Shown piece by piece: positions 17,618 to 39,773 of a stretch of 56,029 bases of DNA. Numbering within the stretch: position 1 is the first letter of the stretch; each line of letters opens with the position of its first letter. Both the position numbers and the translations under genes were made by a program. The stretch is from Candidatus Hydrogenedens sp. (lineage in GTDB: Bacteria > Hydrogenedentota > Hydrogenedentia > Hydrogenedentales > Hydrogenedentaceae): positions 1 through 56,029 of the forward strand of contig JBMFRC010000021.1 of the NCBI GenBank assembly GCA_049968235.1, in the 5' to 3' direction. The notes below the pieces were generated by a model. The model saw only the letters and a list, made by a program, of their open reading frames with translations, searched no databases and had not been told where the DNA came from.

Positions 17618-18384
17618 AATGAGACCTCTGAACAATTCGTGTAAGATGTTATGGTATAAGTTATATATGTTTTTACGAGATAAAATCCCGATGAGAAATT
17701 AACATACAAAAGTCTGTATCTCTACTTTTATCCATTTTATTTGCTATTTTCTGTCAGGTTTTTTATTTTCTTATTACCTATGTATATCTTTCCTCTTGCA
17801 CCCTTAATTCCCCATACATCCGCTTCAAATTATATGCAATCGTTAACAGGAAATGATATACTCCTCTCTATATGCACCTCTGTATCCTCTGTGCTCCTCC
17901 GTGTCCTCCGTAGTGAAAAAGATATAATCAACCAGAGAGACACAGAGAAATTATAACTCACTGCTCAACAATACATACAATAGTAAGGACAAAAGCCTCC
18001 ATTATTCCCAGTTCGCTTTATATACTCCTTTCTCTATTATGCACCTCTGCTCAAATTTCCTTCCATTCCATCACTTCTTGCATCTGCCTCAAAAAATATC
18101 TACGACAGATCAGTTTCTGATAGAACATCTCGTAATCTACAAAATCTCTTTGTTCTATCTCTATCTATAAAACTTATTTCCTCCATCTCTTATATACCAT
18201 ACTGCGAGGACCTTTCTTCATTTTTAGTTTTTCCTTGCTTTGTTATTCAAACCAATACAATACCTCTACAATATGTATATGCTATATCCATACACTTCTT
18301 TTTCTCATCTCGTCTCATCTTTTCCTGCCTACTTCTCGTATAAAACATATCTCATTAACCATATGATTTATCCAGAGGTCTCAG
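17618..18384 (+). repeat. MITE-like non-coding element, copy A (~767 bp), with 16-bp terminal inverted repeats TGAGACCTCTGAACAA / TTATCCAGAGGTCTCA
   Basis: Left terminus aaTGAGACCTCTGAACAAttcgtg at 17618. Right terminus ttTATCCAGAGGTCTCAgat ends at 18384. The interior is roughly 80% identical, with indels, to the reverse complement of 37918-38618. For example, cactgctcaacaatacatacaatagtaaggac and ctcttgcatctgcctcaaaa are shared. No conserved ORF is present and the top strand is pyrimidine-rich. Confidence 0.75.
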
Positions 18385-18538
18385 ATATGGATTTTGCAAA
18401 TGAATGCGAAGGATTTTTTCATCTATTAATTCTTTTTTTTCTGTCTCTCTGGTCCCATAACACGGATACGATAGTTATACACATATTTGCCCCCATGGAG
18501 GACAGTATTAATTAAACCTTTGTTTCCTGTTTCCCCCC

Positions 18539-20395
18539 TTATAATCCAGGGCAGTAGCGGTCTTCGCCGTCTGGACAAGGATGGTAGCCACCTATGTTAA
18601 AGTACTGGATTAACCGCAATAATTCGGATAGGTTTATCATCCAATCCTGAGGATTATAGTCTGATGCATGCGGTATGCAACTCTTATCCCCTTCAAATCC
18701 AGGAATATAGCCATCCTCTGACTCCTCTCCCGGCAAGGCACAATGATACCCTTGCATATTGAAAAACTGTATCACGCGTAATAACTCGGGTAGATTTATC
18801 TGCCAATCTCCATTTTGGTCTGCACTATGTGATGGTGTTTCCCCCTCGCCTTCAGTCATTCCTTCGCCTTCTACTGCTCCTTCCACGATACCTTCGCCAT
18901 CAGCACTACCTTCGGATATCCCTTCCGTTGTACCTTCGACGGTGCCTTCAACTGTCCCTTCGCCATCAGGGGTTCCTTCGAGAGTCCCTTCTGCGATACC
19001 TTCGCCTTCCATTACTCCTTCACCCTCGATAATTCCTTCGCCTTCAAAACTACCTTCGGATATACCTTCTGTGGTGCCTTCAAATGTCCCTTCGCCATCA
19101 GGGGTTCCTTCGCCTTCGGGTAAGGCAAGACAATCTGTTGGAATTTCGTCCGTATTACGGTTATCAACTGGGTCTAAATAATTCGGAATACCATCATTAT
19201 CTGAATCCCATGGTAACGGGTCATATACATCCCGAATGAGGTCGCAATCGTCGTCTAAATCATCCGGGTCCATCCAACCATCTTCATCAAGGTCGTCATA
19301 AGGTCGCATATATGGTGTAATTCCGATATCTGTGGTAAATATAAACTGTCCATTAGAAAAGTTAATCTCAATAAAGTATGCTTTCCACCCTGTTTCAGGT
19401 GGTATTACTGTTGCAAGATATGTTTTTGAACCGGGTGATGTTTCGCTTAAATTAGAAGATGTCCATGTTGGTCCTGCTCCATCGTAATAGCGGAAATCAC
19501 GAGCATTTGGATTTAGAGCCTGCCATAACTTTACAGAAGTTGGATTTGTTGCCACCTGCACCTGAATACTCCCATCGGGTAAAAATTGCCAGGAATAGTT
19601 AGGTCTGCTTCCGCCACTTGTAACAGAGTTAAAATAGGTAATAAGAGCAATAATACTATTGTAATCACTGGTTAGATTTTCCAGACTATGCCCCGAATTG
19701 GGGACATATCTTAAACGCTTTTCGCCGGGCAGTTCATTGTAATAAAAACGGGAAGAATCGGGTAGGAAAAATTCATCTCCACTGGCATTGATTATAAATT
19801 TTGGCATTGTATAGTTATTCAGGTAAGAATAGGGGTCTACAATCTGTCTCAGGGCATATCCTCCGGGGGTACTCATTCGTTCAAATATATGCAATTCATT
19901 ATAAGGGGTTAATCTCTCTGAGAAGAAGCCATAACATTTGTATTGATGGTCCATCTGAACATTCATCTTAAGGACATCAATTACAATGGGGACAATGGCA
20001 ATGACTCGTGAATCAACCGCTCCCGTTAGCCAAGTAGTCCAACCTCGTTTGGATGCACCCCCAATGACAAAACCACTTATTGTTTTGCCATGATTATTTA
20101 ATACAATCTCTTCGATAGTGTCCATGGCACGGACAGCACTTTTTACCATCGGCAAAAGGACAGGCCAGTAAGGGTCTGGTGTCCCTGCATTATAAGTTTG
20201 CAAATATTTATCAAAACTGTAAGCAATAATTTGGTCCTCTGTCCGACTAAGAGTCTCGTCTTTGAAAAGAAGCGGTTGATTGGGAACCTGTTCAAGTAAT
20301 GCAACAGGAGCACCGGTTAATATTGCAACATACTGAGCATAATCCCGAAGGTTAGTGGCGGAGGAGCCGTTGTTTCCTCCGGATATTATCAACAA
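18539..20395 (-). CDS. PhoPQ-activated pathogenicity-related (PqaA-family, alpha/beta-hydrolase-like) secreted protein with TSP3-like Ca-binding repeats, an (EGx)n linker and two C-terminal dockerin-like repeats; main body downstream of an in-frame TGA
   Basis: VIGGASKRGWTTWLTGAVD is the PqaA-family signature. Then come DDLDEDGWMDPDDLDDDCDL...DSDNDGIPNYLDPVDN (thrombospondin-type-3-like). About 35 Glu-Gly-x triplets follow, encoded by a 9-nt periodic DNA repeat at 18840-19140. Two dockerin-like segments close the protein: DQNGDWQINLPELLRVIQFFN and DYNPQDWMINLSELLRLIQYFN. The same frame continues upstream through TGA at 20447-20449 into ORF 20447-20671. Confidence 0.6.
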   Translation of the reverse strand: MLIISGGNNGSSATNLRDYAQYVAILTGAPVALLEQVPNQPLLFKDETLSRTEDQIIAYSFDKYLQTYNAGTPDPYWPVLLPMVKSAVRAMDTIEEIVLNNHGKTISGFVIGGASKRGWTTWLTGAVDSRVIAIVPIVIDVLKMNVQMDHQYKCYGFFSERLTPYNELHIFERMSTPGGYALRQIVDPYSYLNNYTMPKFIINASGDEFFLPDSSRFYYNELPGEKRLRYVPNSGHSLENLTSDYNSIIALITYFNSVTSGGSRPNYSWQFLPDGSIQVQVATNPTSVKLWQALNPNARDFRYYDGAGPTWTSSNLSETSPGSKTYLATVIPPETGWKAYFIEINFSNGQFIFTTDIGITPYMRPYDDLDEDGWMDPDDLDDDCDLIRDVYDPLPWDSDNDGIPNYLDPVDNRNTDEIPTDCLALPEGEGTPDGEGTFEGTTEGISEGSFEGEGIIEGEGVMEGEGIAEGTLEGTPDGEGTVEGTVEGTTEGISEGSADGEGIVEGAVEGEGMTEGEGETPSHSADQNGDWQINLPELLRVIQFFNMQGYHCALPGEESEDGYIPGFEGDKSCIPHASDYNPQDWMINLSELLRLIQYFNIGGYHPCPDGEDRYCPGL

Positions 20396-20446
20396 ACCTT
20401 TTGTTTTTGTTATCGAAGTAGGGACAATGATTGTTAGCCAGTGTTT

Positions 20447-20671
20447 TCATAATGTCCTATTAACTTCAGAAGAACTTCGCCAGGTCTGAGATGTAAGGTC
20501 CACCACATAGTAAGTATGAGTTATAGTATTCTCCTGTGATGTAATGGTATAAGTGTAGGAAGAGTCAGGCATGTTTACATAATCTTCTAAAGGACCTGCG
20601 TAAGCACAATAAGAAAAAAGAAATGAAAAAATGACAAATGAAAAATAACTTGCGAGATGGCTTTTGCGCAT
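20447..20671 (-). CDS. N-terminal fragment (signal peptide plus first PqaA-family block) of the 18539-20395 gene, separated from it by a single in-frame TGA
   Basis: MRKSHLASYFSFVIFSFLFSYCAYA signal peptide, then GPLEDYVNMPDSSYTYTI, which is typical of the PqaA-family N-terminus. Reading through the TGA gives ...NRTL*KHWLTIIVPTSITKTKGLLIISGGNNGSS... with no frame change. Confidence 0.5.
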   Translation of the reverse strand: MRKSHLASYFSFVIFSFLFSYCAYAGPLEDYVNMPDSSYTYTITSQENTITHTYYVVDLTSQTWRSSSEVNRTL

Positions 20672-20753
20672 TGGTAAACACCCTTATGTTATTCAAAGCA
20701 TTTTTAATAATTATACTATAAAATTAAGTTATAATGTCTTTTTTTCTTTTTAT

Positions 20754-20783
20754 TTGATATAAGTCCTATGAATTTGTTATAAT
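20754..20783 (+). promoter_or_regulatory. candidate sigma-70 promoter of the rpsB operon (TTGATA-N18-TATAAT)
   Basis: TTGATA at 20754-20759 and TATAAT at 20778-20783, about 120 nt upstream of the rpsB ATG. An imperfect hairpin (GGAGCC...GGCTCC, 20819-20870) lies in the leader. Confidence 0.35.
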
Positions 20784-20904
20784 TTTAACTCTTTATGAGA
20801 TTTTTAACAAAAACACAGGAGCCTCCCGCCTTTGTTTTGGGTGCTCATAAAAAATGAGTTCCAGCGGGCTCCAAGGTTAAACCCAAACAGATAAGGATAT
20901 AACT

Positions 20905-21783
20905 ATGTCAGTTGTAACCCCTCGTGAATTGCTTGAAGTAGGAGCGCATTTTGGTCATCAAACTCGCCGTTGGAACCCTAAAATGGCACGGTTCATTTAT
21001 GGTGAAAAGAATGGTATTTACATTATTGACCTGAAGCATACCCTTAAGCAGTTATATAAGGCGTATGCACTGGTTAGCGAAACCGTTGCCAATGGGGGAA
21101 CGGTTCTTTTCGTAGGCACAAAACGGCAGGCACAGGAAGCCATTAAACGTGAAGCGGAACGTTGTGGTATGTTCTATGTCAATAGCCGGTGGTTAGGCGG
21201 AACATTAACCAATTTCCGCACCATTCGAAGCAGTATTTCGGAATTACTCCGATTGAAGGATTTGGAAGAAACGGGCAAGATTGACCAATATGGTAAAAAG
21301 GAAGGGATTCAATTAAGAAAACGCATTGCTAAATTGGAAAAAAATCTCTGTGGTATTGTCAATATGATAGAGCCACCGAGTATTGTTTTCGTTGTGGATA
21401 CCAATCATGAAGAAATAGCGGTTCGTGAATCGGCACGATTGAAAATTCCGTGTATTGGCATTGTTGATACCAATGCGGACCCTGACGCAGTTTCCCTTCC
21501 GATTCCGGGAAATGATGATGCCATACGCTCTGTATCTCTCTATTGCAAAGTAATTGCGGATGCGGTATTAGAGGGTAAGAATATTCAGGAAAAGGGGTCT
21601 GCGACAGAGGCAAAGGTTAAGCCTATTTCCCGAAGAGTAAAGCGTGTAACTGATGAAGAGATAAAGCCTGTTGTATCTGTTTCTGAAGAAGATATGAAAG
21701 AAAATGAAGTAGAAGATGAAAGCACATCCTCTGATGAATCAGAAGAAATTCAACAAGAAACATCTGTAGTTGAAGAAAATTAA
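20905..21783 (+). CDS. rpsB: 30S ribosomal protein S2 (with acidic C-terminal tail)
   Basis: [43 protein letters not shown] is a canonical S2 N-terminus. The acidic Glu/Ser-rich C-terminal extension is unusual but in frame. Confidence 0.95.
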
Positions 21784-21810
21784 TTATTAATAAATACAGG
21801 AGAAGAATAA

Positions 21811-22485
21811 ATGAGTATTAGTGCGAGTGATGTAAAAAAATTAAGAGAACAAACCAATGCACCCATGATGGATTGTAAAAAAGCACTTATGGAGTGCGGT
21901 GGTGATATGGATAAAGCGGTCAAATGGTTGCGTGAGCGTGGAATTATGAAAGCGGCATCACGTGCAAATCGTGTTGCGGCGGAAGGGTGTATAGCTTCTT
22001 ATGTACACATGGGCGGGAAAATTGGAGTGCTTGTAGAAGTAAACTCAGAAACCGATTTTGTGGCTCGTGGTGCAGAATTTCAAACCTTTGTAAAAGATAT
22101 TTGCCTGCAAATATGTTCTTCCGCACCGAAATGGATTGGCAAAGAGGACATTCCTGCGGAAGCATTAGAAGAAGAAAAACAATTATATGTAAAGCAGGCT
22201 CTGGACACAGGCAAACCTCAGAATGTTTGTGAGAAGATAGCAGAAGGCAAATTGAACAAATGGTTCGAAGAAGTTTGCTTATTAGAACAAGTTTCAGTAA
22301 AGCCTGAACATGATGGTAAAAAGATAAAAGATTTATTAGGCGAATTAACCGCTAAGTGCGGTGAAAAGATAGAAATCCGACGCTTTGTTCGTTGGATTCT
22401 CGGTGAAGGTATCGAAAAGAAACAAACCAATTTTGCAGAGGAAGTTGCCGCAGAATTAGCGAAATCCGCCAATAAAGAGGCATAA
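21811..22485 (+). CDS. tsf: elongation factor Ts (short form)
   Basis: MSISASDVKKLREQTNAPMMDCKKALMECGGDMDKAVKWLRERG is a UBA-like EF-Ts N-terminus. It sits immediately downstream of rpsB, in conserved synteny. Confidence 0.9.
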   Translation: MSISASDVKKLREQTNAPMMDCKKALMECGGDMDKAVKWLRERGIMKAASRANRVAAEGCIASYVHMGGKIGVLVEVNSETDFVARGAEFQTFVKDICLQICSSAPKWIGKEDIPAEALEEEKQLYVKQALDTGKPQNVCEKIAEGKLNKWFEEVCLLEQVSVKPEHDGKKIKDLLGELTAKCGEKIEIRRFVRWILGEGIEKKQTNFAEEVAAELAKSANKEA

Positions 22486-22488
22486 AGA

Positions 22489-23208
22489 GTGAGTATTCCA
22501 ATTTACAAACGGGTATTATTAAAACTCAGTGGAAATGCTTTATCCTCAGATGGGGAGAATATAGGCTCAAAAGCATTAAGTCATCTATGTGATGAAGTTG
22601 CATCGGCATATAAGACCGGTGCTCAGATAGGATTGGTCGTAGGGGGTGGAAATATCCTTCGCGGAAATCAATGGTCAAAAGCATCTGGCGTCGACCGTGC
22701 TACCGCAGATTACATGGGAATGCTTGCTACCGTAATAAATGCTCTTGCCCTTCAATCTGCACTGGAAAAACATGGGCTTGAGACCAGGGTGCTTAGTGCT
22801 ATAGAGATGAGACCGGTGGCAGAACCTTACATAAGACGACGTGCTTTGCGACATTTAGAAAAAGGGCGAATTGTGATTTTTGCTGCAGGGACCGGAAATC
22901 CTTTCCTCACCACTGATACTGCTGCAGCATTACGTGCCAGTGAAATAGATGCAGATATATTGATGAAAGCCACGCGGGTAGATGGGGTTTATTCTGCGGA
23001 CCCGGAAAAAGACCCTACTGCCAGAAGATATGACCATTTAACTTATCAACAGGTTCTTTCACAGGACCTGAAAGTGATGGATGCAGCAGCAATATCTATT
23101 TGTCGTGAAAAGAACATACCTATTTTGGTATTCTCTTTCTTAGAAAAGAACTGTATTGTTCATGCGGTTTGTGGGAACTCTATTGGAACTATAGTTAAGG
23201 GAGATTAA
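22489..23208 (+). CDS. pyrH: UMP kinase
   Basis: [31 protein letters not shown]...[10 protein letters not shown] is the UMP kinase signature. The rpsB-tsf-pyrH-frr order is conserved. Confidence 0.9.
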
Positions 23209-23211
23209 CCT

Positions 23212-23769
23212 ATGTCACACCCACTTATTAAAGAAGCCGAACAAAAAATGGATAAAAGTGTGGAAAGTTTGCAACAAGAACTCTCTGGCTTTCGCACAGG
23301 AAGAGCTACACCTACCTTATTAGATGTTGTTCATGTGGATGCGTATGGCAGTAAAATGAAGATTAATCAATTAGGAAATGTAACTGTCCCGGATTCTCAT
23401 CTTATCGTTATTGACCTCTGGGATAAATCACTTATCGGTGCTGTGGAAAAAGCGATTATGGCTTCACCGCTTGGTGTAAATCCATCGAATGATGGCAGAT
23501 TAATTCGCATACCTATTCCTCCTCTGAGTGAAGAGCGTCGTAAAGAACTTACAAAGGTTGCCAATAAAATGGCAGAAGAAGCCCGTGTTGCTGTTCGCAA
23601 TATTCGCCGTCATATTTTAGAAACCCTGAAAAAAGAGCAGAAAGACGGCAAGATAACCGAAGATGACCTGCATCGCCTTTCAGATGAAGTCCAGAAACTC
23701 ACCGATAAACATATTGAAAAAATAGACCAGGTTCTTAAAGCCAAAGAAAAAGACATAATGGAAGGCTGA
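23212..23769 (+). CDS. frr: ribosome recycling factor
   Basis: 185 aa with ...SGFRTGRATPTLLDVVHVDAYGSKMKINQLGNVTVPD... as the RRF fold signature. The stop is TGA. Confidence 0.9.
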   Translation: MSHPLIKEAEQKMDKSVESLQQELSGFRTGRATPTLLDVVHVDAYGSKMKINQLGNVTVPDSHLIVIDLWDKSLIGAVEKAIMASPLGVNPSNDGRLIRIPIPPLSEERRKELTKVANKMAEEARVAVRNIRRHILETLKKEQKDGKITEDDLHRLSDEVQKLTDKHIEKIDQVLKAKEKDIMEG

Positions 23770-23834
23770 ACTTCTATTTATCCTCTGACAATTTTACAGT
23801 TATTATCTGAACATTCAAATCAGGTTTTATATCC

Positions 23835-24614
23835 ATGCGAAAACTTCCTGCGGACTTAGACCCCCGAGTTAATGTAGAGCGGTTACCCCGACATATTGCT
23901 GTTATTATGGATGGCAATGGTCGCTGGGCAAAACGTCACGGGAAGAAAACGACCGAAGGGCATGAAGCAGGAACAGAAGGGGTGCGGGAAGTATTAAAGG
24001 GTTGCCGTGAGTTAGAGATTCCGTGCCTTTCTCTATATGCTTTTTCAACAGAAAATTGGTCTCGTCCCAAGGAAGAAGTAGATTCCCTCTTCCAATTAAT
24101 GAGTAAATATATCCGCAAAGAAATTGATGAGATAAATAAATATGGTATCCGTGTATTGTTTATGGGCGAATGGAGAGAATTACCTTCAACCGCTGTGCGG
24201 GACCTCGAATATTGTCTGGAACAAACCCGAGATAATAGAGATATGACCGTTGTCGTAGGATTAAATTACGGGGGAAGGCAGGAAATACTTCGCTGTGCCA
24301 AAATAATGGCAGAAAAAGTTCAAAAAGGCGAATTGCTACCAGAGGAAATTACTGAAAGTCTTTTTAATCAACATTTATATATACCTGAATTTCCCGATGT
24401 TGACCTTTTAATCCGCACCAGTGGAGAACAACGGGTTAGTAATTTTATGCTATGGCAGTTATCTTATGCGGAGATGGTCTTTTTGCCTGTTCTCTGGCCA
24501 GACTTTCGGCGAAAACATCTCTGGGAAGCCATAGTTCATTACCAGCAAAGGGAACGACGATTTGGCTCCCGTACAGATGAAACAGACCCTGGTGCATCGG
24601 AAATTCATACCTGA
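23835..24614 (+). CDS. uppS: isoprenyl transferase / undecaprenyl-diphosphate synthase
   Basis: HIAVIMDGNGRWAKRHG...YAFSTENWSRPKEEV...LIRTSGEQRVSNFMLWQLSYAEMVF are cis-prenyltransferase motifs. The stop is TGA. Confidence 0.9.
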   Translation: MRKLPADLDPRVNVERLPRHIAVIMDGNGRWAKRHGKKTTEGHEAGTEGVREVLKGCRELEIPCLSLYAFSTENWSRPKEEVDSLFQLMSKYIRKEIDEINKYGIRVLFMGEWRELPSTAVRDLEYCLEQTRDNRDMTVVVGLNYGGRQEILRCAKIMAEKVQKGELLPEEITESLFNQHLYIPEFPDVDLLIRTSGEQRVSNFMLWQLSYAEMVFLPVLWPDFRRKHLWEAIVHYQQRERRFGSRTDETDPGASEIHT

Positions 24615-24637
24615 ACATCGAAGAGAGGAAGCCCCCT

Positions 24638-25444
24638 GTGTTTCAGCGAATTATTACAGGAAGTATTTTAGTTATACTCACCGCCATCCTCATCTGGGTG
24701 CCGGGCTTGCATATTCCTTTGGGTATTTTTATCGCCTGTTTAACCACAATTGCTGTCCGTGAATACTTCCACATCGTTGAACCTGCTAATAAAAATATTC
24801 TCAGTATCCTAACTTTAGGGCTCGTTCCTCTCACTGTACTAACAGGAATTTTGCATACTCTTATTATGCTACATCTGTTTTTTATTCTTTCTTTTGGGCT
24901 TTTATCCATTATCTATACATTCAACAGAACTACTTCTATAAATAAATTTGCACATTCATTCTTCGGGCTATTTTATTTTGGTTGGGTCCCTGCACATCTG
25001 TTAATACTTCATAAGACACCCGGAGGTCCCGGACTAATAACCCTGTTTATTACCGCAGTGGCTCTATGCGATTCAGGTGCGTATTGTATTGGAAAACTTT
25101 TTGGGAAACACGCCCTTGCTCCGGAGATTAGTCCTAATAAGACCTGGGAAGGAAGTATGGGTGGGATTATTTTCAGTACCGTTGGGACTTTTGTTCTCTG
25201 GATATTGCATAAAGCCATTTTTACACAATTCTTGCCTGTTCGGAGTATTGGTTTTTATCTCCAATGGGGTATAATACTTGCCATATTAAGCCAATTCGGT
25301 GATTTGTTAGAATCACGATGGAAACGGGAAGTAGGTATTAAAGACTCCGGAACTATTTTCCCGGGACATGGGGGTGTTCTTGACCGCTGTGATGGGATGT
25401 TATTTGCCTTTCCGTTCTTCTTTTATTTAATAAAATTTTTATAA
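24638..25444 (+). CDS. cdsA: phosphatidate cytidylyltransferase
   Basis: Multi-TM protein with the C-terminal CdsA signature ...SQFGDLLESRWKREVGIKDSGTIFPGHGGVLDRCDGMLFAFP. Confidence 0.85.
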   Translation: MFQRIITGSILVILTAILIWVPGLHIPLGIFIACLTTIAVREYFHIVEPANKNILSILTLGLVPLTVLTGILHTLIMLHLFFILSFGLLSIIYTFNRTTSINKFAHSFFGLFYFGWVPAHLLILHKTPGGPGLITLFITAVALCDSGAYCIGKLFGKHALAPEISPNKTWEGSMGGIIFSTVGTFVLWILHKAIFTQFLPVRSIGFYLQWGIILAILSQFGDLLESRWKREVGIKDSGTIFPGHGGVLDRCDGMLFAFPFFFYLIKFL

Positions 25445-25479
25445 CATTGTTTTGAGGATTAAGGAATTTTGAATTTGTT

Positions 25480-26595: not shown

Positions 26596-26597
26596 CT

Positions 26598-28103: not shown

Positions 28104-28125
28104 ATCGCAATATAGGAAGATCCCC

Positions 28126-30052: not shown

Positions 30053-30338
30053 TGTGGAGATTCTGTTTAATCGCTTACTCATTTACCTACCTGAACAATA
30101 GATAAATACACACCTGATACATTTAGAGGAAAATAATGCTTCTCCCCTACAAAACTATAATTTGTTTTTAGCAAATAAACAGAAAGGTATGTATCTGTAA
30201 CAATGCAATTTTTCCTACCGAAGTAAAAACACCTTTGTCGTAGGCAAAATTAAGTGCGTAATCTGTTGAAGAGGATTGGTGGATTTATTTATTTCATTTC
30301 CATACTGTCCTATGGAGACTACCTACGGGTTCTTCTTT

Positions 30339-32225
30339 TTACTCAACAACGAAACCTTCCTTTTCGAGAAGTGCTTTAATTTCAGATAGTAGCATACCCC
30401 GCGAATAGACTGTATGGTTAGGAGAAATGGGGTGAAGTATCTCGGAAAGTTTCTTGCGGTGCATTAAATCGGCAATTATGACAGAATCCTGTGCCTCTAT
30501 TAAAATAACCGGGCGTACCTTTACTCGTTTAACCGTATGCATCCAATCTTCCATTGTGGAGATAACTATATCCGGAATTTGTTGCTTACGGGTATTCTGG
30601 AATAAGTATTGTATGAATTGGTTCGGGTCTGCACCACTCTGCACTCCCTTCAGGAAGGATTCCTTAGTAATTGAATATATTGAAACAGGTCCACCATTAC
30701 TTTTCTTTTGAGCAAAAAGTTCTATCCAGATTAATTGTAACGGGTCTACTTTAATTGTGGGAACAATAATTTCAAAGTTAGGCTGGACTATCCATTCCTG
30801 TTTTTTGTTGTATTTTTCTTTCAACTTCTTTGTAGGTTCTGAAGAGAATAAAAGATATTCCCCAATTTCACTGATACGGAAATAACGGTCTTTTTTGGCA
30901 TAACCAAATTCAATAATGCCAAACCAGAAGAAAGTATTATCTATAAAATGTATATAGTTCTTCTCATCACAATTGTCTTCGGAAGGTAAATATTCCCAGA
31001 AATTGTCTTTCGTTTGTTTTAATTCATAACGGGATAACTCACAATGTCGAGCGTAAACTCTTTTCCCAAACTCATTCAGAGAATACCATGTGTAAGGTTT
31101 TAATCCCTGTAACTCCGAAAGAGTTGCCGATAAAGATAAATTTGTTTCTTCCGCTTTGATGGCTGTTTCATAAATCTTTTTAAGTCTCTCCGGAAACGAC
31201 ATATTTACAAGTTCTTCAAGGTTTACAATACGGAGTGTGTTATCCACCTGTGCAAGCAAACCTGCTTTCTCAGCCAGCCGGACCAGTGTCTCGATAGGTG
31301 GATATGCATTTTCAGGCTCATCACGGGAAATGCGTTGTTCATCGGCACGAGTAATTTGTCCCGATGAGGTTATGCGTAAGGGAGATACTGCAATTTTGCC
31401 AAGAAGATGAGATATGCGTTCTGCCAATGAAACACCACAACTCTCAATACGGCTGATTTTAATATTTGTAGGTGTGATTTGTTGTTTCAATATCTCTTTC
31501 GATTCTTTTCTCTTTTCTCTATAATGCCGAATTTCGGATAGGATACTAATAAAACGGTTAAGTCTGTTTTGCCCATTGAAACGGAAAAGTTCAAAGAGAA
31601 CAAACTGATTGAGTAATTCATCTAATGCTTCTTCAATTTCTGTATTATTATATTTAGGAAACCTTTGCCGTATTTGCTGAACAGGGACAACCCCAGTCTT
31701 GCTTTGCCATAAGAAATCAAATATTTCCCTGGCTAATCCGGAAAAAGAATAACCCGCAACATATTCCAGAACAGATTCGGGGGTTTTATATAAATTTTCT
31801 ATGATTTCATTGGCTAATGACATCCACCCAATTACACGATTTATCTTTAATTTTTGTTCCAATTCCCTGCGTTCAGAATTGGAATAATTTTGTAACGATT
31901 TATAAATAGAATTAATGTCCCCCAGACTGTTCAAGTTATCCTGAACTCTACGAATAATAGGAAGAGCTTCCGGAACTACTTTAACGCGGTTTAAATCAAA
32001 AAAGAAAAGTTTTGGGTAAAGTTTGTAAATGTAATTAATCGTTTCTTCTGAGGTTTCAAGTTTTGCGGATAAATACCGGCTCGTTAGCCCTCCCCGGCTA
32101 TTCGCAGACAACTCAAGAGCCATATAAAACGATGTTAAGTCCATCCCTTCAAAGGCGGACAATAGACTATAACTATAACGCATTATCTCGCGGACCTTTT
32201 CAAAATACAGTTTACCTTGCACCAA
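30339..32225 (-). CDS. orphan hypothetical protein (628 aa) with a C-terminal segment reminiscent of the XPB damage-recognition / helicase-associated (PF13625-like) domain
   Basis: No catalytic motif was recognised. The C-terminal ~110 aa (...DWMHTVKRVKVRPVILIEAQDSVIIADLMHRKKLSEILHPISPNHTVYSRGMLLSEIKALLEKEGFVV) resemble the small alpha/beta domain found N-terminal to XPB-type helicases. It is convergent with lolD. Confidence 0.5.
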   Translation of the reverse strand: MVQGKLYFEKVREIMRYSYSLLSAFEGMDLTSFYMALELSANSRGGLTSRYLSAKLETSEETINYIYKLYPKLFFFDLNRVKVVPEALPIIRRVQDNLNSLGDINSIYKSLQNYSNSERRELEQKLKINRVIGWMSLANEIIENLYKTPESVLEYVAGYSFSGLAREIFDFLWQSKTGVVPVQQIRQRFPKYNNTEIEEALDELLNQFVLFELFRFNGQNRLNRFISILSEIRHYREKRKESKEILKQQITPTNIKISRIESCGVSLAERISHLLGKIAVSPLRITSSGQITRADEQRISRDEPENAYPPIETLVRLAEKAGLLAQVDNTLRIVNLEELVNMSFPERLKKIYETAIKAEETNLSLSATLSELQGLKPYTWYSLNEFGKRVYARHCELSRYELKQTKDNFWEYLPSEDNCDEKNYIHFIDNTFFWFGIIEFGYAKKDRYFRISEIGEYLLFSSEPTKKLKEKYNKKQEWIVQPNFEIIVPTIKVDPLQLIWIELFAQKKSNGGPVSIYSITKESFLKGVQSGADPNQFIQYLFQNTRKQQIPDIVISTMEDWMHTVKRVKVRPVILIEAQDSVIIADLMHRKKLSEILHPISPNHTVYSRGMLLSEIKALLEKEGFVVE

Positions 32226-32325
32226 TTGAACATAACATTATATAGGAAATGCTGTGCGAGTTCAAATCGCAAAGAAGGATAATGAAAAGCCATACCTGCT
32301 CATGAAATTGGTCTTTATTCCTGTG

Positions 32326-32379
32326 CTATGCAAAAATTGCAGAGTAATTGGTGAAAAGTGCAGGTTTTGCATAGAAATT
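32326..32379 (+). promoter_or_regulatory. pair of inverted enhancer-like dyads (ATGCAAAAATTGCAG and its near-reverse-complement GTGCAGGTTTTGCAT; TGCA-N5-TGCA cores), candidate UAS for the adjacent NtrC-type activator
   Basis: 32329-32341 tgcaaaaattgca and 32360-32372 tgcaggttttgca lie about 31 bp apart (three helical turns). They sit 45-90 bp upstream of the sigma-54 -24/-12 element. Confidence 0.4.
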
Positions 32380-32402
32380 TGCGATAAGTCGTTTATAATA
32401 CA

Positions 32403-32420
32403 TTGGCATAAGTATTGCTT
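32403..32420 (+). promoter_or_regulatory. sigma-54 (RpoN) -24/-12 promoter: TGGCAT-N5-TTGCT
   Basis: GG at 32405-32406 and GC at 32417-32418 have exactly 10 nt between them, matching the consensus TGGCAC-N5-TTGCW. It lies ~45 nt upstream of ATG 32467 and an AGGAGA RBS. An NtrC-family activator is encoded 1.5 kb downstream. Confidence 0.6.
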
Positions 32421-32466
32421 ATTTATTATAGGAAAACAAAAAACCTTAACAATAAGGAGAAAGAAG

Positions 32467-32820
32467 ATGAAACAGAGATTCGTATTCACACTAAGTTTAC
32501 TGGCAGTCGTCCTGATGCTGAGTGGGATTACTATGGCACAAGGAAATGGACAGGGTGCTCAGCGAGGTTATTGCAAAACCAATTGCTATGTGGACAAAAA
32601 TGGCGATGGTGTCTGCGATAACTTCAAAGACGCCAACAATGATGGTAGATGTGATAATTGCACATGCCCGGCATCCTGCGGGAAAGGTAAAGGAAACTGC
32701 TGTAGCAATTTTGTAGATTCCAATAATGATGGCAGATGCGATAATTGCCAAAATTCTAATGCCTACTATGGTAATGGTAGGGGAAAATGCAATAGAAGAT
32801 GTTGCCCTGTAAACAAATAA
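32467..32820 (+). CDS. small secreted Cys-rich protein with three tandem Ca-loop-like repeats (D-x-N-x-D-G-x-C-D-N)
   Basis: MKQRFVFTLSLLAVVLMLSGITMAQG is a Sec signal peptide. The mature ~91 aa carry 14 Cys and the repeats VDKNGDGVCDNF, DANNDGRCDNC and DSNNDGRCDNC. The RBS is AGGAGAAAGAAG. The real start is 32467, not the track start 32254. Confidence 0.65.
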   Translation: MKQRFVFTLSLLAVVLMLSGITMAQGNGQGAQRGYCKTNCYVDKNGDGVCDNFKDANNDGRCDNCTCPASCGKGKGNCCSNFVDSNNDGRCDNCQNSNAYYGNGRGKCNRRCCPVNK

Positions 32821-32839
32821 GAAACAAAGGAAAATCATT

Positions 32840-32878
32840 GGCTTGCTCTTTAATAAAAAGGGCAAGCCTTTATTTTAT
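32840..32878 (+). terminator. rho-independent terminator after the Cys-rich protein gene
   Basis: GGCTTGC (32840-32846), a 15-nt loop, then GCAAGCC (32862-32868) followed by TTTATTTTAT. Confidence 0.6.
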
Positions 32879-32908
32879 AATATAATTATGATACATTAAA
32901 GAAAATAT

Positions 32909-34246
32909 ATGTTCTGGCAAAATAGAAAATTACTTTTTGTTTTTACAGCAATTATTGTCGGCGTAATTATTTTTATTCTTCTGGTTTCTTTTTTACGAGA
33001 GCGACAGCATAACCAACAGGTCTTTGTAGAACGAGGACAAACACTATTGCAAATTCTTTCCTCCTCTTTATCACTTCAAACACGCATGGGCTGTTATCGT
33101 GCCCAGCGAGTTGTGGAAATAATAAATAGTGTTTCGTTATCCCCGGGTATTTTGTATGTAGCGTTATTAAATCATGAAGGGAAAATAATTGCCAGTGCAG
33201 GTGAAACATCCGTCTCCCCAATAAATAAAATTGCAAAAGGAAAACATATTTATTGGGATAACGAATGTGTTTGTTTATCACAAACGATTTCTATGGACGA
33301 ACTTCAAAAAGGTCGTCAACACCGATATGGAATGGCAGTATGTCCTGACCCAACATGTGCAAATGAAAGTATGATTCCCTGGAGTGAATGGGGAACGGGT
33401 CCTTTTCTTCTGATGGTTTGTCTGAATACTCAAGAATTGAAAGGAATGAACAAATCAACCTCTATTCGGTTTGGGATATTTGCCCTGTTGAGTATGGGCA
33501 TAAGTATATTGGGCTTTGTTGTTCTGGAATTGTATCAACGAAAAGAATTGTATGCTTATGACCTAAAATTAACCCGGGAAAAAGCAAGATATAACGAACA
33601 TTTAGCACAAATAGGGGCAGGACTGGCACATGAGACAAAAAACCCATTAAGCATTGTTCGTGGGCTTGCTCAGGCAATACAGGAGGAAGTGGAGCCAATT
33701 TCAGATGCATATAAATATGCCAGTAAAATAATTGATGAGACAGACCGTTCTGTCCGGCAGATAAACAATTTTTTGGAACTGACACATCCTCATACTCCCG
33801 AAAAGAAACCTATCTCTTTACAATCTATCATTGAACAGTTGTTGAATTTGACAGATACAGATATAAAAAATAAAGGCATTTCCATTGAAGTAAAAGGAAC
33901 AGATATAACCATAGAAGCAGACCCCGAATATCTTCGTCGTGCTTTGTTAAATCTCCTTCTGAATGCAATACAGGCATGTTCCGCAGGAGATAAAATTACC
34001 CTTCAAATAGAACCCCTCGGCGATTGGATAGCCCTTCACATTATAGATACAGGAGTCGGTATTTCAGCAGAAGATTTACCTCATGTAGTAAAGCCGTATT
34101 ATTCCAAACGGAAAGGAGGCACAGGGCTTGGTTTGAGTATTGTAAATGAAATAGTTCTATTGCATGGATGGGAATTTTCTATCCAATCTCAAAAGGGAGA
34201 AGGAACAAAGGTAACTATTTCCCATATCCGCCGAATTAACAGTTGA
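32909..34246 (+). CDS. sensor histidine kinase with Cys-containing periplasmic sensing domain
   Basis: TM1 LLFVFTAIIVGVIIFILLVSF. The periplasmic ~150 aa include ...DNECVCLSQ...MAVCPDPTCANES.... TM2 IRFGIFALLSMGISILGFVVL. HisKA LAHETKNPLSIVRG. HATPase ...GVGISAEDLPHVVKPYYS...GGTGLGLSIVNEIV. Confidence 0.8.
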   Translation: MFWQNRKLLFVFTAIIVGVIIFILLVSFLRERQHNQQVFVERGQTLLQILSSSLSLQTRMGCYRAQRVVEIINSVSLSPGILYVALLNHEGKIIASAGETSVSPINKIAKGKHIYWDNECVCLSQTISMDELQKGRQHRYGMAVCPDPTCANESMIPWSEWGTGPFLLMVCLNTQELKGMNKSTSIRFGIFALLSMGISILGFVVLELYQRKELYAYDLKLTREKARYNEHLAQIGAGLAHETKNPLSIVRGLAQAIQEEVEPISDAYKYASKIIDETDRSVRQINNFLELTHPHTPEKKPISLQSIIEQLLNLTDTDIKNKGISIEVKGTDITIEADPEYLRRALLNLLLNAIQACSAGDKITLQIEPLGDWIALHIIDTGVGISAEDLPHVVKPYYSKRKGGTGLGLSIVNEIVLLHGWEFSIQSQKGEGTKVTISHIRRINS

Positions 34247-34303
34247 GGTATGTTTATAGTATGATGAATAAAATATAGAGATGAAATACCCTTTGTTAAT
34301 TCC

Positions 34304-35614
34304 ATGAAAAAAGAAAACGCAGAAAAAGTAATTCTACTTGTTGATGATGATAATGCTCAGAGAGAATTACTCTCTCGCTATCTAACTCGGGCAGGCTTTT
34401 CTGTCCTTGCTGTTGCTAATTACAAAGATGCAAAGCCCCTTTTCGGACATGCACATCTTATTCTTCTGGATGTTCGTCTGCCGGATGCCAATGGGGTGGA
34501 GAAAATACCGGAGATAAAGGAACAGTTTCCGGGAATTCCTGTGATTTTGCTCACCGCTTTTATTGATGTCCGCGATGCCGTTCAGGCAATTAGACAGGGT
34601 GCTGTGGATTACCTTGAAAAGCCTGTAGATTTAGATGAGTTAATTGAAGTAATCCAAGAACAGCTGGGAACACTTCCGACAGATAGGACAGAAGATAGCG
34701 AATTGCCGGAAGACTTTATCTGTTATAGCACATCCATGCAAAAAGTGGTGCAGGATTGCCTTCGTGTATCTCCCACCAAAGCCACAGTGCTTATTACCGG
34801 AGAAAGTGGTGCAGGGAAAGAATGGATAGCAAGACTTATTCACCAATTTAGTGAGCGTAAAAATAAACCTCTTGTTGTTATAGATTGCACACATCTGCCA
34901 GAAACACTTGCAGAAAGTATTTTGTTTGGTCATGAACCCGGCGCTTTCACAGGGGCTATAACACAACAAAAAGGGCAACTTGAAGAGGCTAATGGAGGAA
35001 CTCTTTTTTTGGATGAAGTAGGAGAATTGCCCCTATCAGTGCAACCAAAACTATTGCGTGTTCTGGAAGGGTCACCTTTCCGAAGGATTGGTGGGACAAA
35101 AGATATACATGTTGACCTGCGTATTATTTCTGCGACCAATCGGAATTTAGAAACAGAGGTGCAGGAAGGAAAATTTCGTCAGGATTTGTTCTATCGCCTT
35201 CATGTAATCACCATTCATGTCCCTCCTTTACGAGAACGAGTAGATGATATTCTACCTCTGGCAGAATTTTTTTTGAAGCCGTATAACAAAACTTTATCAC
35301 CATCCGTACAGAGATTACTCCTCCGCTATCCGTGGTTCGGAAATGTTCGCGAATTAAGAAATGCTATGGAACGTTCTGCTATTCTTGCTAATGGTCCCAT
35401 GATTATGCCCGAAGACCTTCCAGAGATTATTCAAAATTATTCACCTTCCGATGAATCCCATCAGCCCCCTTCTTCATTACGATTGGATGAGTTAGAACGG
35501 GAGGCGATTCTTAACGCATTAAAAGAAGCAGGGGGAAATCGAACACGAACTGCGGAAATTTTAGGAATTAGTAGACGTACACTTATATATAAATTGCGGG
35601 CATACGGGTTATAA
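34304..35614 (+). CDS. sigma-54-dependent response regulator (NtrC family bacterial enhancer-binding protein)
   Basis: Receiver domain (ILLVDDDNAQRELL...LILLDVRLPDANG). AAA+ sigma-54 activation domain with Walker A GESGAGKE, the GAFTGA loop (HEPGAFTGA) and ESELFGHE-like ESILFGHE. C-terminal Fis-type HTH (GGNRTRTAEILGISRRTLIYKLRAYGL). Confidence 0.85.
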   Translation: MKKENAEKVILLVDDDNAQRELLSRYLTRAGFSVLAVANYKDAKPLFGHAHLILLDVRLPDANGVEKIPEIKEQFPGIPVILLTAFIDVRDAVQAIRQGAVDYLEKPVDLDELIEVIQEQLGTLPTDRTEDSELPEDFICYSTSMQKVVQDCLRVSPTKATVLITGESGAGKEWIARLIHQFSERKNKPLVVIDCTHLPETLAESILFGHEPGAFTGAITQQKGQLEEANGGTLFLDEVGELPLSVQPKLLRVLEGSPFRRIGGTKDIHVDLRIISATNRNLETEVQEGKFRQDLFYRLHVITIHVPPLRERVDDILPLAEFFLKPYNKTLSPSVQRLLLRYPWFGNVRELRNAMERSAILANGPMIMPEDLPEIIQNYSPSDESHQPPSSLRLDELEREAILNALKEAGGNRTRTAEILGISRRTLIYKLRAYGL

Positions 35615-35660
35615 TTTGTTTTATAATGAGGATAGGTAAATTACTTTTGTAGGACATTGT

Positions 35661-36908
35661 ATGAATATCCATGAACACCAACCATACCCTCCTTTAAGAA
35701 ATATCGAGGCATTCCCCATTCATCATCAAGGACAAACACTTATCTGCCTTCATGACCCACTGGGATATGTAAACACCGAAATTACACTCTCACCCGCTGC
35801 ATTCTTTATTGCCGCATGTCTGGATGGAAATCATACCTCGCGGGATATTCAACTGGAATTTGCTCGTGAATTTCAAGGGGCTTTAATCCCTCGTGAACAG
35901 ATAGAAAAAATAGTTGAGTTCCTGGATGAACATGGCTTCCTCCTAAATGAACGCTTCGAGGAAATTAAAAGCAAAACAGAAAAGGATTTTTTACAGCAAG
36001 TTGTTCGCCTTCCTTATCATGCAGGGCAATCTTATTCTTCTGCAAAGCATGAATTGGGTGCCTTTTTATCCACAATTTTTACACGAACAGGGGGACCGGG
36101 ACCTTTGCCCGATAAACAACAATCTTCTGAGGATTGTATGGTCGGTTTAATTGTTCCACATATTGATTTTCAACGGGGTGCTCTGGGTTATGCCCATGCC
36201 TACTATCGACTTTATCAATGTAAAAAACCGGATACAGTTATTATCTTTGGGGTAAGTCATCAAGGGGGAGAAACACCTTATATCTTAACACGCAAACATT
36301 ACAGCACACCTTTAGGAACTATTAAAACACATCAGGATTGTGTTGAGTATTTAGCCCAGAATTCACAATTCGACCCGTTCAAATCTGAAATTATGCATCG
36401 TATGGAACATTCCATTGAATTTCAGGTGCTAATGTTGAATTATCTCTTTGGCACAGATATTCAGATAGTCCCTGTGTTATGTACCTCTATTTCAGAAGAT
36501 AGAGAACTCTCCCCAGAGGATATTCCGGAAATCCAACAATTTCTGCAAACATGTATCCAATATATCGAACATAGTGGAGAGCGAGTATTGGTCTTGTCTG
36601 CATCAGATTGGGCACATGTCGGAAAACGATTCGGTGACTCGTTTGATATTACCGAAGATATTCAAATTCAGATAAAAAACCGCGATGACGAAGACATAAA
36701 AGTAGCTTTAAATATAAACCCGGAGCATTTTTTCCATTCTGTTATGAAAGACAAAAACAGCCGTCGAGTATGTGGATTATACTCTATTTATTCTACATTG
36801 AAAGTCATAAAAGGAACCGCACACCGTGCTGAATTTCTGCATTATGGACAAGCCCCTGACCCTATTGGCGGGATTGTCTCCTTTTCAAGTATTGCCTACT
36901 TTAAGTAA
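35661..36908 (+). CDS. fusion protein with an N-terminal PqqD-like (RiPP-recognition-element-like) domain and a C-terminal MEMO1 / AmmeMemoRadiSam-protein-B-like domain
   Basis: MEMO signatures: MVGLIVPHIDFQRGALGYAHAY (compare GxIxPHAGYxYSG), MEHSIEFQVLMLNYLF (compare EHSxExQLPFL) and LSASDWAHVGKRFGD (compare SsDfSHyG). The N-terminal residues ~30-95, EITLSPAAFFIAACLDGNHTSRDIQLEFAREFQGALIPREQIEKIVEFLDEHGFLL, align by eye with PqqD ([29 protein letters not shown]...DDVVEFLQ...WI). Confidence 0.6.
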   Translation: MNIHEHQPYPPLRNIEAFPIHHQGQTLICLHDPLGYVNTEITLSPAAFFIAACLDGNHTSRDIQLEFAREFQGALIPREQIEKIVEFLDEHGFLLNERFEEIKSKTEKDFLQQVVRLPYHAGQSYSSAKHELGAFLSTIFTRTGGPGPLPDKQQSSEDCMVGLIVPHIDFQRGALGYAHAYYRLYQCKKPDTVIIFGVSHQGGETPYILTRKHYSTPLGTIKTHQDCVEYLAQNSQFDPFKSEIMHRMEHSIEFQVLMLNYLFGTDIQIVPVLCTSISEDRELSPEDIPEIQQFLQTCIQYIEHSGERVLVLSASDWAHVGKRFGDSFDITEDIQIQIKNRDDEDIKVALNINPEHFFHSVMKDKNSRRVCGLYSIYSTLKVIKGTAHRAEFLHYGQAPDPIGGIVSFSSIAYFK

Positions 36909-36917
36909 GGTGTAAAG

Positions 36918-37916
36918 ATGAATAGGAATACTATTTTGCTTATATTATTCTTCGGAATTATTTGTAATTTGCCCTGCCAATCGTATCATACCTTGATCGA
37001 CTTACATACCGCACCGGGATGGGCTTCGGAAAATGGTGGGACAACAGGCGGAGGAAAATCAAAACCTACTACAATTAAAACGATAGAAGAACTTCAAACT
37101 CTGGTCTCTACAGAAGAACCACAAACAATACTTGTAAGTGGGACCATGGGAGCAGGACTTTCTACAAAAATAAAAGTAAACTCAAACAAGACTATCATGG
37201 GTTTAGACAAGGCACTTATAAAAGGCAGTTTTACCATTAAAGATGCAAAAAACATTATCATCCGGAATTTGACGATTGAGGGTCCCGGTGCCATTGATGT
37301 GAATGCTCCATACTGTATTACAATAGATAATTCAACAAATATATGGTTAGACCATCTTGATATATACGATGGTTAGGATGGAAATGTTGATATTGTTAAT
37401 GGTTCTAACTACATTACCATATCATGGTGCAAGTTCCATTATACTTCTGCTTCGAAAAATCATAAATTGTCAACACTCATTGGTAATTCAGATGAAAAAA
37501 TATCCGACAGAGGAAAATTGAAAACTACAATGGTATATAACTGATGGGCAGAAGGCGTTGATTCGCGTACGCCAAGAGTTCGCTTTGGACAGGTGCATGT
37601 CATAAACAATCTCTACACATGCACAGAAAATGATTACTGCATTCTGGCAGGCATGGAAGCAAACTTGAGAATCGAATATAATTTATTTGTAAATGTAAGA
37701 GAACCTATCAATTTATCTCAAAAAACATTTACTGCTGTTAGCGACTCAAACAATAAATTCCTATCAGTCAAAGGGAACACTGAGGGAAAAGGAGACGCCT
37801 TTAAGCCCCCCTATAATATAACCATTATCCCATTAAATAAATTAGAAATGATTATAAAAAAGTATGCAGGAGCCAATCTTCCTCATATTAAAAACGAAAT
37901 ATTCTGTGAACAATAG
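36918..37916 (+). pseudogene. pectate lyase (polysaccharide lyase family 1) with two in-frame nonsense codons (TAG 37374-37376, TGA 37542-37544) and no frameshift
   Basis: Signal peptide, then GWASENGGTTGGGKS...ILVSGTM...IKVNSNKTIMGL...IIRNLTIEG...IWLDHLDIYDG*DGNVDIVNGSNYITISWCKFHYTSASKNHKLSTLIGNSDEKISDRGKLKTTMVYN*WAEGVDSRTPRVRFGQVHVINNLYT.... This closely parallels Bacillus or Erwinia PL1 motifs (GYASxNGGTTGG, vWIDHxxfs...DGxxDIkxgSdyVTvSwn.F..HdKxmLiGhSD, RMPRVRFGqvHvyNNYY). The track reports only the flanking pieces 36918-37376 and 37593-37916. Confidence 0.7.
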
Positions 37917-37917
37917 A

Positions 37918-38618
37918 ATGAGACCTCTGAATAAGTCATTCGAGTTAAGTAGTATATTTATATAGGGGAAGAGGATGGGTGGAAAATGAAACGAGAAGAG
38001 GGAAAAGTGGTATATATATAGCAGAAGTATTGGGGGATGAATGACAAAACAAGGAAGAACTAAAAATAAAGAAAGGTCAACGCAGTATGGTATATAAGGG
38101 ATGGAGGGAATAAGTTTTATAGATAGAGATAGAGCAAATAGATTTTATATATTATGTGATGTCCTATCATAAACCGCCCCGTCGTAGACGTCTTTTGAGG
38201 CAGATGCAAGAGGTAATACCATAAAGGAATTTTGAGCAGAGGTGCGTATAGAGAAGAGTATATAAAGTAAACTGGGAAGAACGGAGACTTCCATCTTTAC
38301 TATTGTGTGCATTGTTGAGCAGTGAGTGATGATTTCTTTATATTCTCTTTGCAGGGAATTTAATCGGTGGCGGTAAAACGATTTTTTTCTACGTTTCTCT
38401 ATGTCTTCTATGGTGATTATATTTTTAATTCCAAAGGGAGCAAAAGGAGAAATATGCATAGACAAAAAAGATAGAAAAATAGACAGAAAATAACAAATAA
38501 AATGGGTAATTTTAGAGATACAGAATTTTGTATTTTAATTTCTCACCGTGATTTTATCTCATAAAAACATATATAACTTATACCCTTACCTCTTACACCA
38601 CTTGTTCAGAGGTCTCAG
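37918..38618 (-). repeat. MITE-like non-coding element, copy B (~701 bp), inverted relative to copy A; same TIRs TGAGACCTCTGAAYAA
   Basis: Left terminus aaTGAGACCTCTGAATAAgtc at 37918, 1 bp after the PL1 stop. Right terminus cttgTTCAGAGGTCTCAgtt at 38603-38618. The reverse complement aligns with 17618-18384, for example gtataagttatatatgtttttatgagataaaatcacggtgagaaatt versus gtataagttatatatgtttttacgagataaaatcccgatgagaaatt. Confidence 0.75.
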
Positions 38619-39739: not shown

Positions 39740-39773
39740 TCCGGAAAAAAGGAGGTTATTTTTTTTGTTCAAG
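39740..39773. terminator. weak bidirectional terminator-like hairpin between convergent genes
   Basis: tCTCCggaaaaaaGGAGgttattttttttg. The stem is only 4-5 bp, flanked by T8 on the plus strand and an A-run upstream. Confidence 0.25.

Follow-up and report, generated by a model that had tools for sequence, protein, structure and literature searches.

Here, we analyze two copies of a non-coding repeat element, copy A and copy B, that lie in opposite orientation around a segment of chromosomal genes in Candidatus Hydrogenedens sp. (phylum Hydrogenedentota). They are located on contig JBMFRC010000021.1 of assembly GCA_049968235.1, of which we analyzed positions 1 to 56,029 (the window; 56,029 nucleotides). 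A first-pass annotation of this DNA had proposed that homologous recombination between the copies could invert the DNA between them. Based on blastn and alignment, copy A occupies 17620-18383 (+ strand; 764 bp) and copy B 37919-38617 (− strand, inverted relative to A; 699 bp). The two copies enclose 19,535 bp (18384-37918), in agreement with the distance of about 19.5 kb given in that annotation, and have an outer span of 20,998 bp; the edges it had placed at 17618 and 38618 were right to within 2 bp and 1 bp, respectively. We suggest that A and B are likely two fossil insertions of an IS5-type element resembling miniature inverted-repeat transposable elements (MITEs) in a rearrangement-prone genome, and that their inverted layout is not a working inversion system.

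The bracketed DNA is ordinary chromosome, and all the genes previously listed for it (the rpsB...lolCD run, a sigma-54 module, and a PqaA-like gene) were recovered when gene content was assigned by Pfam and NCBIfam. The left outer flank encodes a lineage-specific 969-aa protein without a known domain (14536-17445, +). Inside copy A follows a PhoPQ_related (PqaA-like) surface protein (18539-20395, −; Pfam PF10142, E = 5e-99), which has Gly/Glu-rich tandem repeats (18861-19093) and a C-terminal module in common with other surface proteins. The rpsB-tsf-pyrH-frr-uppS-cdsA-prfB-lysS-lolC/E-lolD run (20905-30052, +), also recognized by its conserved order, is separated by an intergenic junction (30053-30338), in which a scan for terminal inverted repeats (TIRs) found neither an element nor a TIR, from a group consisting of Helicase_C_3 (−), a 188-aa ORF, a histidine kinase, a sigma-54 response regulator, and Memo/AmmeMemoRadiSam B (+) (30339-36908). 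The last gene before copy B, from which it is separated by 2 bp, is a pectate lyase pseudogene (36918-37916, +) whose reading frame is interrupted by two stop codons (TAG at 37374 and TGA at 37542) and by the loss of 1 bp near 37891; it is otherwise colinear with intact 330-aa orthologs in two relatives (L065 and L067). Beyond copy B, a gene for a DUF1559/N-terminal methylation-motif protein (38711-39733, +) starts 94 bp from the element. Thus, inverted repeats do surround a block dominated by + strand translation genes, and it is correct in general that DNA lying between inverted repeats is inverted when these recombine.

Structure of the repeat copies

The repeat search gave three colinear inverted-repeat segments linking 17620-18249 with 38038-38617. 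Pairwise alignment revealed that these segments are parts of one element and that the similarity between A and B is bounded by TIRs. In within-window blastn, two aligned parts of the copies matched with E values of 6e-94 and 1e-52, far above chance, and no third copy was found in the 56-kb window. Both copies are bounded by TG...CA TIRs (TGAGACCTCTGRAYAA), which are located at 17620-17640 and 18363-18383 in copy A (TGAGACCTCTG...CAGAGGTCTCA) and at 37919-37939 and 38597-38617 in copy B. These TIRs are perfect over 11-13 nt and continue with mismatches to about 21 nt in both copies; all four ends fit TGAGACCTCTGRAYAANTNNT and read (T)GAGACCTCTGAA. With zero to two mismatches, the terminus motif is present at exactly four sites in the window, i.e., the four ends; with up to three mismatches, it has nine matches, more than in each of 100 shuffles.

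Both copies are AT-rich, with a G+C content of 34%, and strongly asymmetric, with 10-12% G and 22-24% C on the element forward strand, which for copy A is the forward strand of the window. This strand asymmetry causes GC-skew spikes of opposite sign at A and B as well as long spurious ORFs (e.g., 38145-38465, − strand, 106 aa). In a global alignment, A and B are 77% identical over aligned columns and 69% identical when gaps are counted. The alignment contains a 49-bp indel and an essentially unalignable middle, and its longest perfect run is 25 bp. Conservation is patchy, reaching 90% at the left end and in columns 551-600 and falling below 50% in the middle.

A coding element, for which stop-free stretches of 118 and 129 aa might speak, was rejected. 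These stretches stem from the G-poor strand and occur in all three frames, with frame switching between the copies and no conserved frame. Consistently, the mismatches between A and B are evenly distributed over codon positions (25/21/24), and no Pfam match was found for the element ORFs. Rfam gave no match for the whole window at the gathering score or for either copy at E ≤ 1. No tRNA that could mark an integration site is nearby, and based on tblastn and Pfam analysis of the window ORFs, neither the copies nor the window contain a transposase remnant. Beyond the window, no further copies were found in 11 relative and four other same-species loci searched, L070 and L071 holding only part of copy B; copy A had no match among 72,556 plasmids; and a metagenome scan with the internal 19-mer TCTTGCATCTGCCTCAAAA returned only 19-24 bp chance matches.

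We also considered that the copies are a duplicated functional non-coding module, for example a regulatory sequence or a gene for a long non-coding RNA, which has been kept in two places. While this idea would account for the blocks of 17-25 identical bases within the patchy alignment, the low G content of one strand, and the end of copy B 94 bp upstream of the DUF1559 start codon, it does not explain why the perfect 11-13 nt TIRs match IS5-family termini. Moreover, Rfam was negative, there is no counterpart in relatives with the same neighboring genes, and the contexts of the copies differ, with A but not B lying between convergent genes. We consider a functional module of this kind extremely unlikely.

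IS5-type termini and the class of the element

We scanned the four-end TIR consensus TGAGACCTCTGRAYAANTNNT against 185,579 reference genomes (596 Gb). The scan gave 47 stretches, most of which are single scattered matches in unrelated genomes, as chance predicts; by our own estimate, roughly 70 chance matches are expected for such a pattern in 596 Gb. The scan recovered neither the source genome nor any copy in Hydrogenedentota. Seventeen matches are in two Spirochaetota metagenome-assembled genomes (MAGs; JBBFLA01 and DAOLVF01), and almost all of these point outward, 50-75 bp from a contig end. This pattern is the signature of a multicopy, assembly-breaking repeat in these MAGs. The repeat is a multicopy IS5-family insertion sequence (IS) with the terminus TGAGACCTCTGAAYAAAT (L015-L018, L021, L022, L028, L030, L033, L046-L049, and L051), and its immediate flanks are mostly AAT or ATT, suggesting a 3-bp A(N)T target. 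Only L021 (7005-7617) reads into the transposase gene. The ORF begins about 100 bp inside the terminus, contains a DUF772 domain, has the IS5-family transposase NF033581 as its best NCBIfam match, and is 40% identical to annotated IS5-like ISXfu1 transposases. The terminus pattern falls on the exact outer end of this IS, and from that end the first 16-18 nt of its terminus are identical to those of A and B (TGAGACCTCTGAAYAA). The Spirochaetota IS differs from A and B in that it encodes a DUF772/IS5 transposase, is multicopy and contig-breaking, and belongs to another phylum; internally, it has nothing in common with A and B.

The IS5-family elements ISNme1 and ISPg1/9 end in GAGACCTTTGCAAAA, and the IS5-type MITE BrickBuilt of Porphyromonas gingivalis has the ends GAGACCTTTGCA, no transposase remnant, and inconsistent target-site duplications (TSDs) (PMC4596501). 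The terminus of A and B is 10/12 identical to the published BrickBuilt end. The resemblance to known IS5-derived MITEs (BrickBuilt, MITE239, and MITE464 of P. gingivalis; ATR of Neisseria, with the parent ISNme1; PMC4596501) extends to other features: these elements and A and B are non-coding, AT-rich, shorter than 1 kb, and intergenic, have not kept a transposase remnant, have short TIRs of the GAGACC... type (GAGACCTCTGAA here and GAGACCTTTGCA in BrickBuilt), and have absent or inconsistent TSDs. However, the known MITEs are present in 10-20 copies per genome compared with the two copies known here, and there is no similarity beyond the TIR; A and B reside in a Hydrogenedentota host, for which neither the window nor the single-pattern scans gave a cognate IS, and they have no internal minisatellite. 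With regard to the features by which MITEs are recognized, A and B have discrete, TIR-bounded ends, a size within 50-1000 bp, a high AT content, and no transposase coding capacity; flanking TSDs are lacking for both. Because the termini match those of the Spirochaetota IS5-family IS and resemble published IS5 ends, we class both copies as putative non-autonomous, MITE-like elements with IS5-type ends and regard them as relics of an element of this type.

Recombination between the copies and gene order in relatives

Inversions between inverted IS copies are known for IS481 in Bordetella pertussis and for IS elements in Yersinia pestis, and inversions between rrn operons are known as well. As in these cases, A and B are inverted repeats around a chromosomal segment that includes housekeeping genes. 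However, the repeats in the known cases are near-identical and at least 1 kb in length, while A and B have a length of 0.7 kb and an identity of 77%; an inverted isomer was not seen here. In Bacillus subtilis, RecA-dependent exchange falls log-linearly with divergence, by about 45,000-fold at 20.8%, and the reported MEPS (minimal efficient processing segment) is above 40 bp (PMC4824099). The divergence between A and B is about 23%, indels being present as well, and at 25 bp their longest stretch of identity is below the reported MEPS; by this measure, they fall short of the length and similarity that RecA would require. By analogy to B. subtilis, RecA-dependent exchange at this divergence would be lowered about 10^4-fold or more (in the range of 10^4-10^5) and, if this relationship extends to Hydrogenedentota, A and B would recombine less often, by several orders of magnitude, than the near-identical IS copies behind known chromosomal inversions. 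A site-specific switch of the Hin/Gin/Fim type has no candidate enzyme in the window, since no recombinase or invertase domain was found among the 40 window ORFs scanned against Pfam.

The same-species population is represented by two fragmented Candidatus Hydrogenedens sp. MAGs (GCA_049971155.1 and GCA_049969095.1), found by exact-protein look-ups. Their contigs are 99.86-99.96% identical to the window and end at window positions 16323, 19035, 29708, 32994, 37362, 38029, 38415, 42873, and 47283; the contig L002 stops at 37362, just short of the first stop codon of the pectate lyase pseudogene. No retrieved same-species short-read contig crosses either copy; because fragmentation is dense, with a break every ~4-11 kb, this argues only weakly for a repeat-induced break. 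Two contigs, L070 and L071, extend from DUF1559 into copy B, covering 589 bp (38029-38617) and 203 bp (38415-38617) of it, respectively. Both are 100% B sequence and do not pass into A-like sequence, neither being an A/B hybrid, and the outer right junction between B and DUF1559 is alike in three assemblies. The alternative orientation was not seen in any same-species contig, and these contigs corroborate the B-DUF1559 junction only. As the longest word common to A and B is 25 bp, a mis-join of the two during assembly is unlikely.

Accordingly, the interpretation in the first-pass annotation is upheld only in part, and the homologous inversion that it proposed is poorly supported: the copies are poor substrates, and no instance was observed. 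An active or recently active invertible region, in which RecA-dependent exchange between the copies inverts the 19.5 kb so that both orientations coexist in the population, would be in line with the confirmed inverted-repeat geometry, with the synteny breakpoints that coincide with both copies (described below), and with the lack of a same-species short-read contig spanning either of them. It is at odds with repeats of 77% identity with indels and a 25-bp run below the MEPS, for which exchange is reduced in the 10^4-10^5-fold range (PMC4824099), and with same-species contigs that are pure B up to DUF1559. In addition, the flanks have no swapped TSDs, and selection would probably act against an inversion of essential, highly expressed genes. 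Altogether, we regard an active switch as highly unlikely.

Skew analyses bear on the orientation of the segment. In the raw GC skew, a negative excursion at 17-19 kb and a positive one at 37-40 kb coincide with the oppositely oriented, G-poor copies and the repeat-rich PhoPQ gene. In a per-gene regression of third-codon-position GC/AT skew on gene orientation, comparing genes inside and outside the segment, the replication-strand skew term was 0.03 ± 0.04 inside and 0.03 ± 0.05 outside; there is no measurable signal anywhere, and the regression is without power. Because there is no usable replication signal, the orientation of the segment relative to replication cannot be assessed and a past inversion cannot be dated.

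Gene order in relatives had been set beforehand as a check on the inversion proposal. This comparison, based on blastn colinearity, confirmed the rpsB-lolD run, the core of which is kept in all relatives examined (L063, L064, L068, L069, L072, and L073); the 21-kb segment of the first-pass annotation is split. The bracketed DNA is not a unit but two independent synteny blocks, 18596-30051 (block 1; colinear with L063, L064, and L068) and 30333-37920 (block 2; colinear with L065, L066, and L067), which sit in different neighborhoods in relatives (L063, L068, and L072 compared with L065, L066, and L067). In L063 (RpsB 87% identical), which is homologous to window 18596-30051, the order is PilZ, PhoPQ (−), rpsB...lolD, and DUF4838. 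L068 (RpsB 90%) has another upstream ORF and PAP2 after lolD, and in L072 (RpsB 76%), the run is preceded by a GH2 gene and followed by an ARMT1-like gene. The block-2 relatives (Memo 89-90% identical) have a PASTA protein, helicase (−)...HK-RR-Memo (histidine kinase, response regulator, and Memo), an intact 330-aa pectate lyase, and then DUF4411/Peptidase_M78/PIG-L. The order from Helicase_C_3 to Memo is identical in L065, L066, and L067, and the homology spans window 30333-37920, ending at the first bases of copy B. In a more distant relative, a single contig of 201,893 bp carries rpsB and Memo in reversed order, with 32 kb between them and both on the same strand.

On the left side, the 969-aa flanking protein has homologs that are 73% and 57% identical and lie on long contigs. 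Both contigs retain the hybrid kinase upstream, while the homologs are followed by NiFe hydrogenase/Hdr genes in one and by DUF1318 and flagellins in the other; the DNA homology of the left flank to relatives stops at the stop codon of the 969-aa protein (17445). The element is in none of the compared relative loci, and neither outer junction is present in any relative. For this reason, gene order in the relatives speaks neither for nor against an inversion between A and B. A third breakpoint is located at 30052-30333, between lolD and the convergent Helicase_C_3 gene, and has no element; the gene after lolD differs in four genomes (helicase, DUF4838, PAP2, and ARMT1-like). Thus, both copies are located at evolutionary synteny breakpoints in a rearrangement-prone lineage. 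The suggestion of a hotspot for assembly or strain variation has some support in that both copies coincide with breakpoints and are uncrossed by same-species short-read contigs, but the same-species MAG sequence is broken every ~4-11 kb anyway, and the third breakpoint is without an element.

With regard to the right junction, a more distant relative (L074 10001-12706; Logan SRR27730023_3504) has Memo followed directly by a co-oriented DUF1559/N_methyl protein. The DUF1559 proteins of L074 and the window are 36% identical, and the Memo proteins are 69% identical. It is possible that the Memo-DUF1559 junction across copy B is ancestral; the L074 protein may be a paralog, orthology being unproven.

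The synteny data bear on two explanations in which the copies rearranged the chromosome. According to the first, the elements caused the breakpoints by ectopic recombination or transposase events with copies elsewhere and diverged afterwards. IS and MITE copies are well-known rearrangement substrates, and the similarity to relatives breaks off precisely in the first bases of B (37920) and, around the intergenic region that contains A, at the two neighboring genes (17445 and 18596). Yet, the third breakpoint has neither an element nor a TIR, and the relatives differ among themselves at the same junctions although they lack the element, as exemplified by the four different genes after lolD; moreover, no other copies were found in the loci and collections scanned. 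We therefore find a causal role of the elements doubtful. A related reading, in which the copies are relics of IS5-type-element rearrangements that gave this Hydrogenedens lineage its present gene order and put rpsB-lolD and the sigma-54/Memo genes between unrelated flanks, and in which the block still inverts at low frequency in natural populations, we consider very unlikely. According to the second explanation, A, B, and the intervening DNA moved as a whole in the manner of a composite transposon, as might be suspected from two inverted copies with intact TIRs around a discrete segment and from outer flanks that are unrelated to the neighbors of these genes in relatives. Such a unit is hard to reconcile with the lack of a TSD at the outer ends and of a transposase in the window, and its cargo would be essential single-copy housekeeping genes from two blocks that are separate in relatives; it is barely credible.

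Several observations concern individual genes. The two 969-aa ORFs that flank the segment in opposite orientation might suggest a larger inverted duplication; this was rejected because the ORFs are unrelated, the one at 14536-17445 (+) having no known domain and the one at 39756-42665 (−) being an MFS/spermidine-synthase/TPR fusion, and their equal length is coincidental. The C-terminus of the PhoPQ_related protein (18542-19093, − strand) has two copies of an HSAD..D..I.L.ELLRVIQFFN..GYHC module after the Gly/Glu-rich repeats. This module is common to PASTA-domain surface proteins in relatives (L063 966-3428 and 7077-9755; L065 2057-4498), and the window copy is 82% identical to the C-terminus of the helicase-adjoining PASTA gene in L065, compared with 74% to the positional ortholog. 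The window protein has 618 aa compared with 892 aa in the ortholog and is missing the PASTA repeats. This pattern may reflect domain shuffling or gene conversion; a trace of an inversion of block 1, which the likeness to the L065 C-terminus might indicate, was rejected because the module is common to several paralogous surface proteins. prfB (25480-26595) is an uninterrupted 371-aa ORF that matches the full TIGR00020 model (516 bits) and is therefore without the programmed +1 frameshift found in many bacteria. Finally, a 176-aa ORF (46233-46763) has a weak, sub-threshold match to HTH_38 (E = 1.9e-4) and is unrelated to the A/B element; HTH_38 is associated with IS30-type transposases, and the ORF may be a regulator or a transposase fragment.

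Origin of the copies and implications

We favor the explanation that A and B are fossil IS5-type insertions. According to this model, a non-autonomous element of ~0.7 kb would have been derived from, or mobilized by, an IS5-family IS, and a DDE transposase made elsewhere would bind the TIRs and thereby move the element. Two ancient copies would then have decayed independently, each in intergenic DNA bordering a conserved gene block, in a host whose gene order is heavily shuffled relative to that of its relatives. Given a remaining identity of 77% and perfect matches of no more than 25 bp, A and B would undergo homologous recombination very rarely. The 19.5 kb between them would be neither mobile nor switchable, and the inverted arrangement would most likely be a by-product of two insertions or of older rearrangements.

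Several points weigh against this explanation. The search pattern itself dictated part of the TIR match to the Spirochaetota IS, and only the position of this match at the exact end of the IS is independent evidence. No TSD was found at either copy, whether in the native arrangement, shifted by 1 nt, or with the flanks swapped as after an inversion (the immediate flanks are GAA/GAT for A and AAC/TTC for B); this could reflect erosion in old copies. Single-pattern genome and metagenome scans gave no cognate IS5 transposase and no extra copy in Hydrogenedentota, and with only two copies known, multicopy status and the parent IS are unproven. There is no empty site among the relatives, as none of them shares either junction. 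Moreover, the patchy conservation between A and B could reflect functional constraint instead of neutral decay, and a rare inversion could still occur.

If the MITE model is true, the parent would be an IS5-family transposase gene flanked by TGAGACCTCTGAA termini. A and B would then represent a previously undescribed MITE-like element of the IS5 type from the candidate phylum Hydrogenedentota, of little importance beyond annotation. For assembly curation, the two copies are too different, with common words of at most 25 bp, for a mis-join between them. The analysis also advises caution in that inverted-repeat geometry alone is no predictor of an invertible segment at a repeat divergence of about 23%. 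For the biology of the Hydrogenedens lineage, our findings indicate a highly fluid gene order around the conserved rpsB-lolD cluster.

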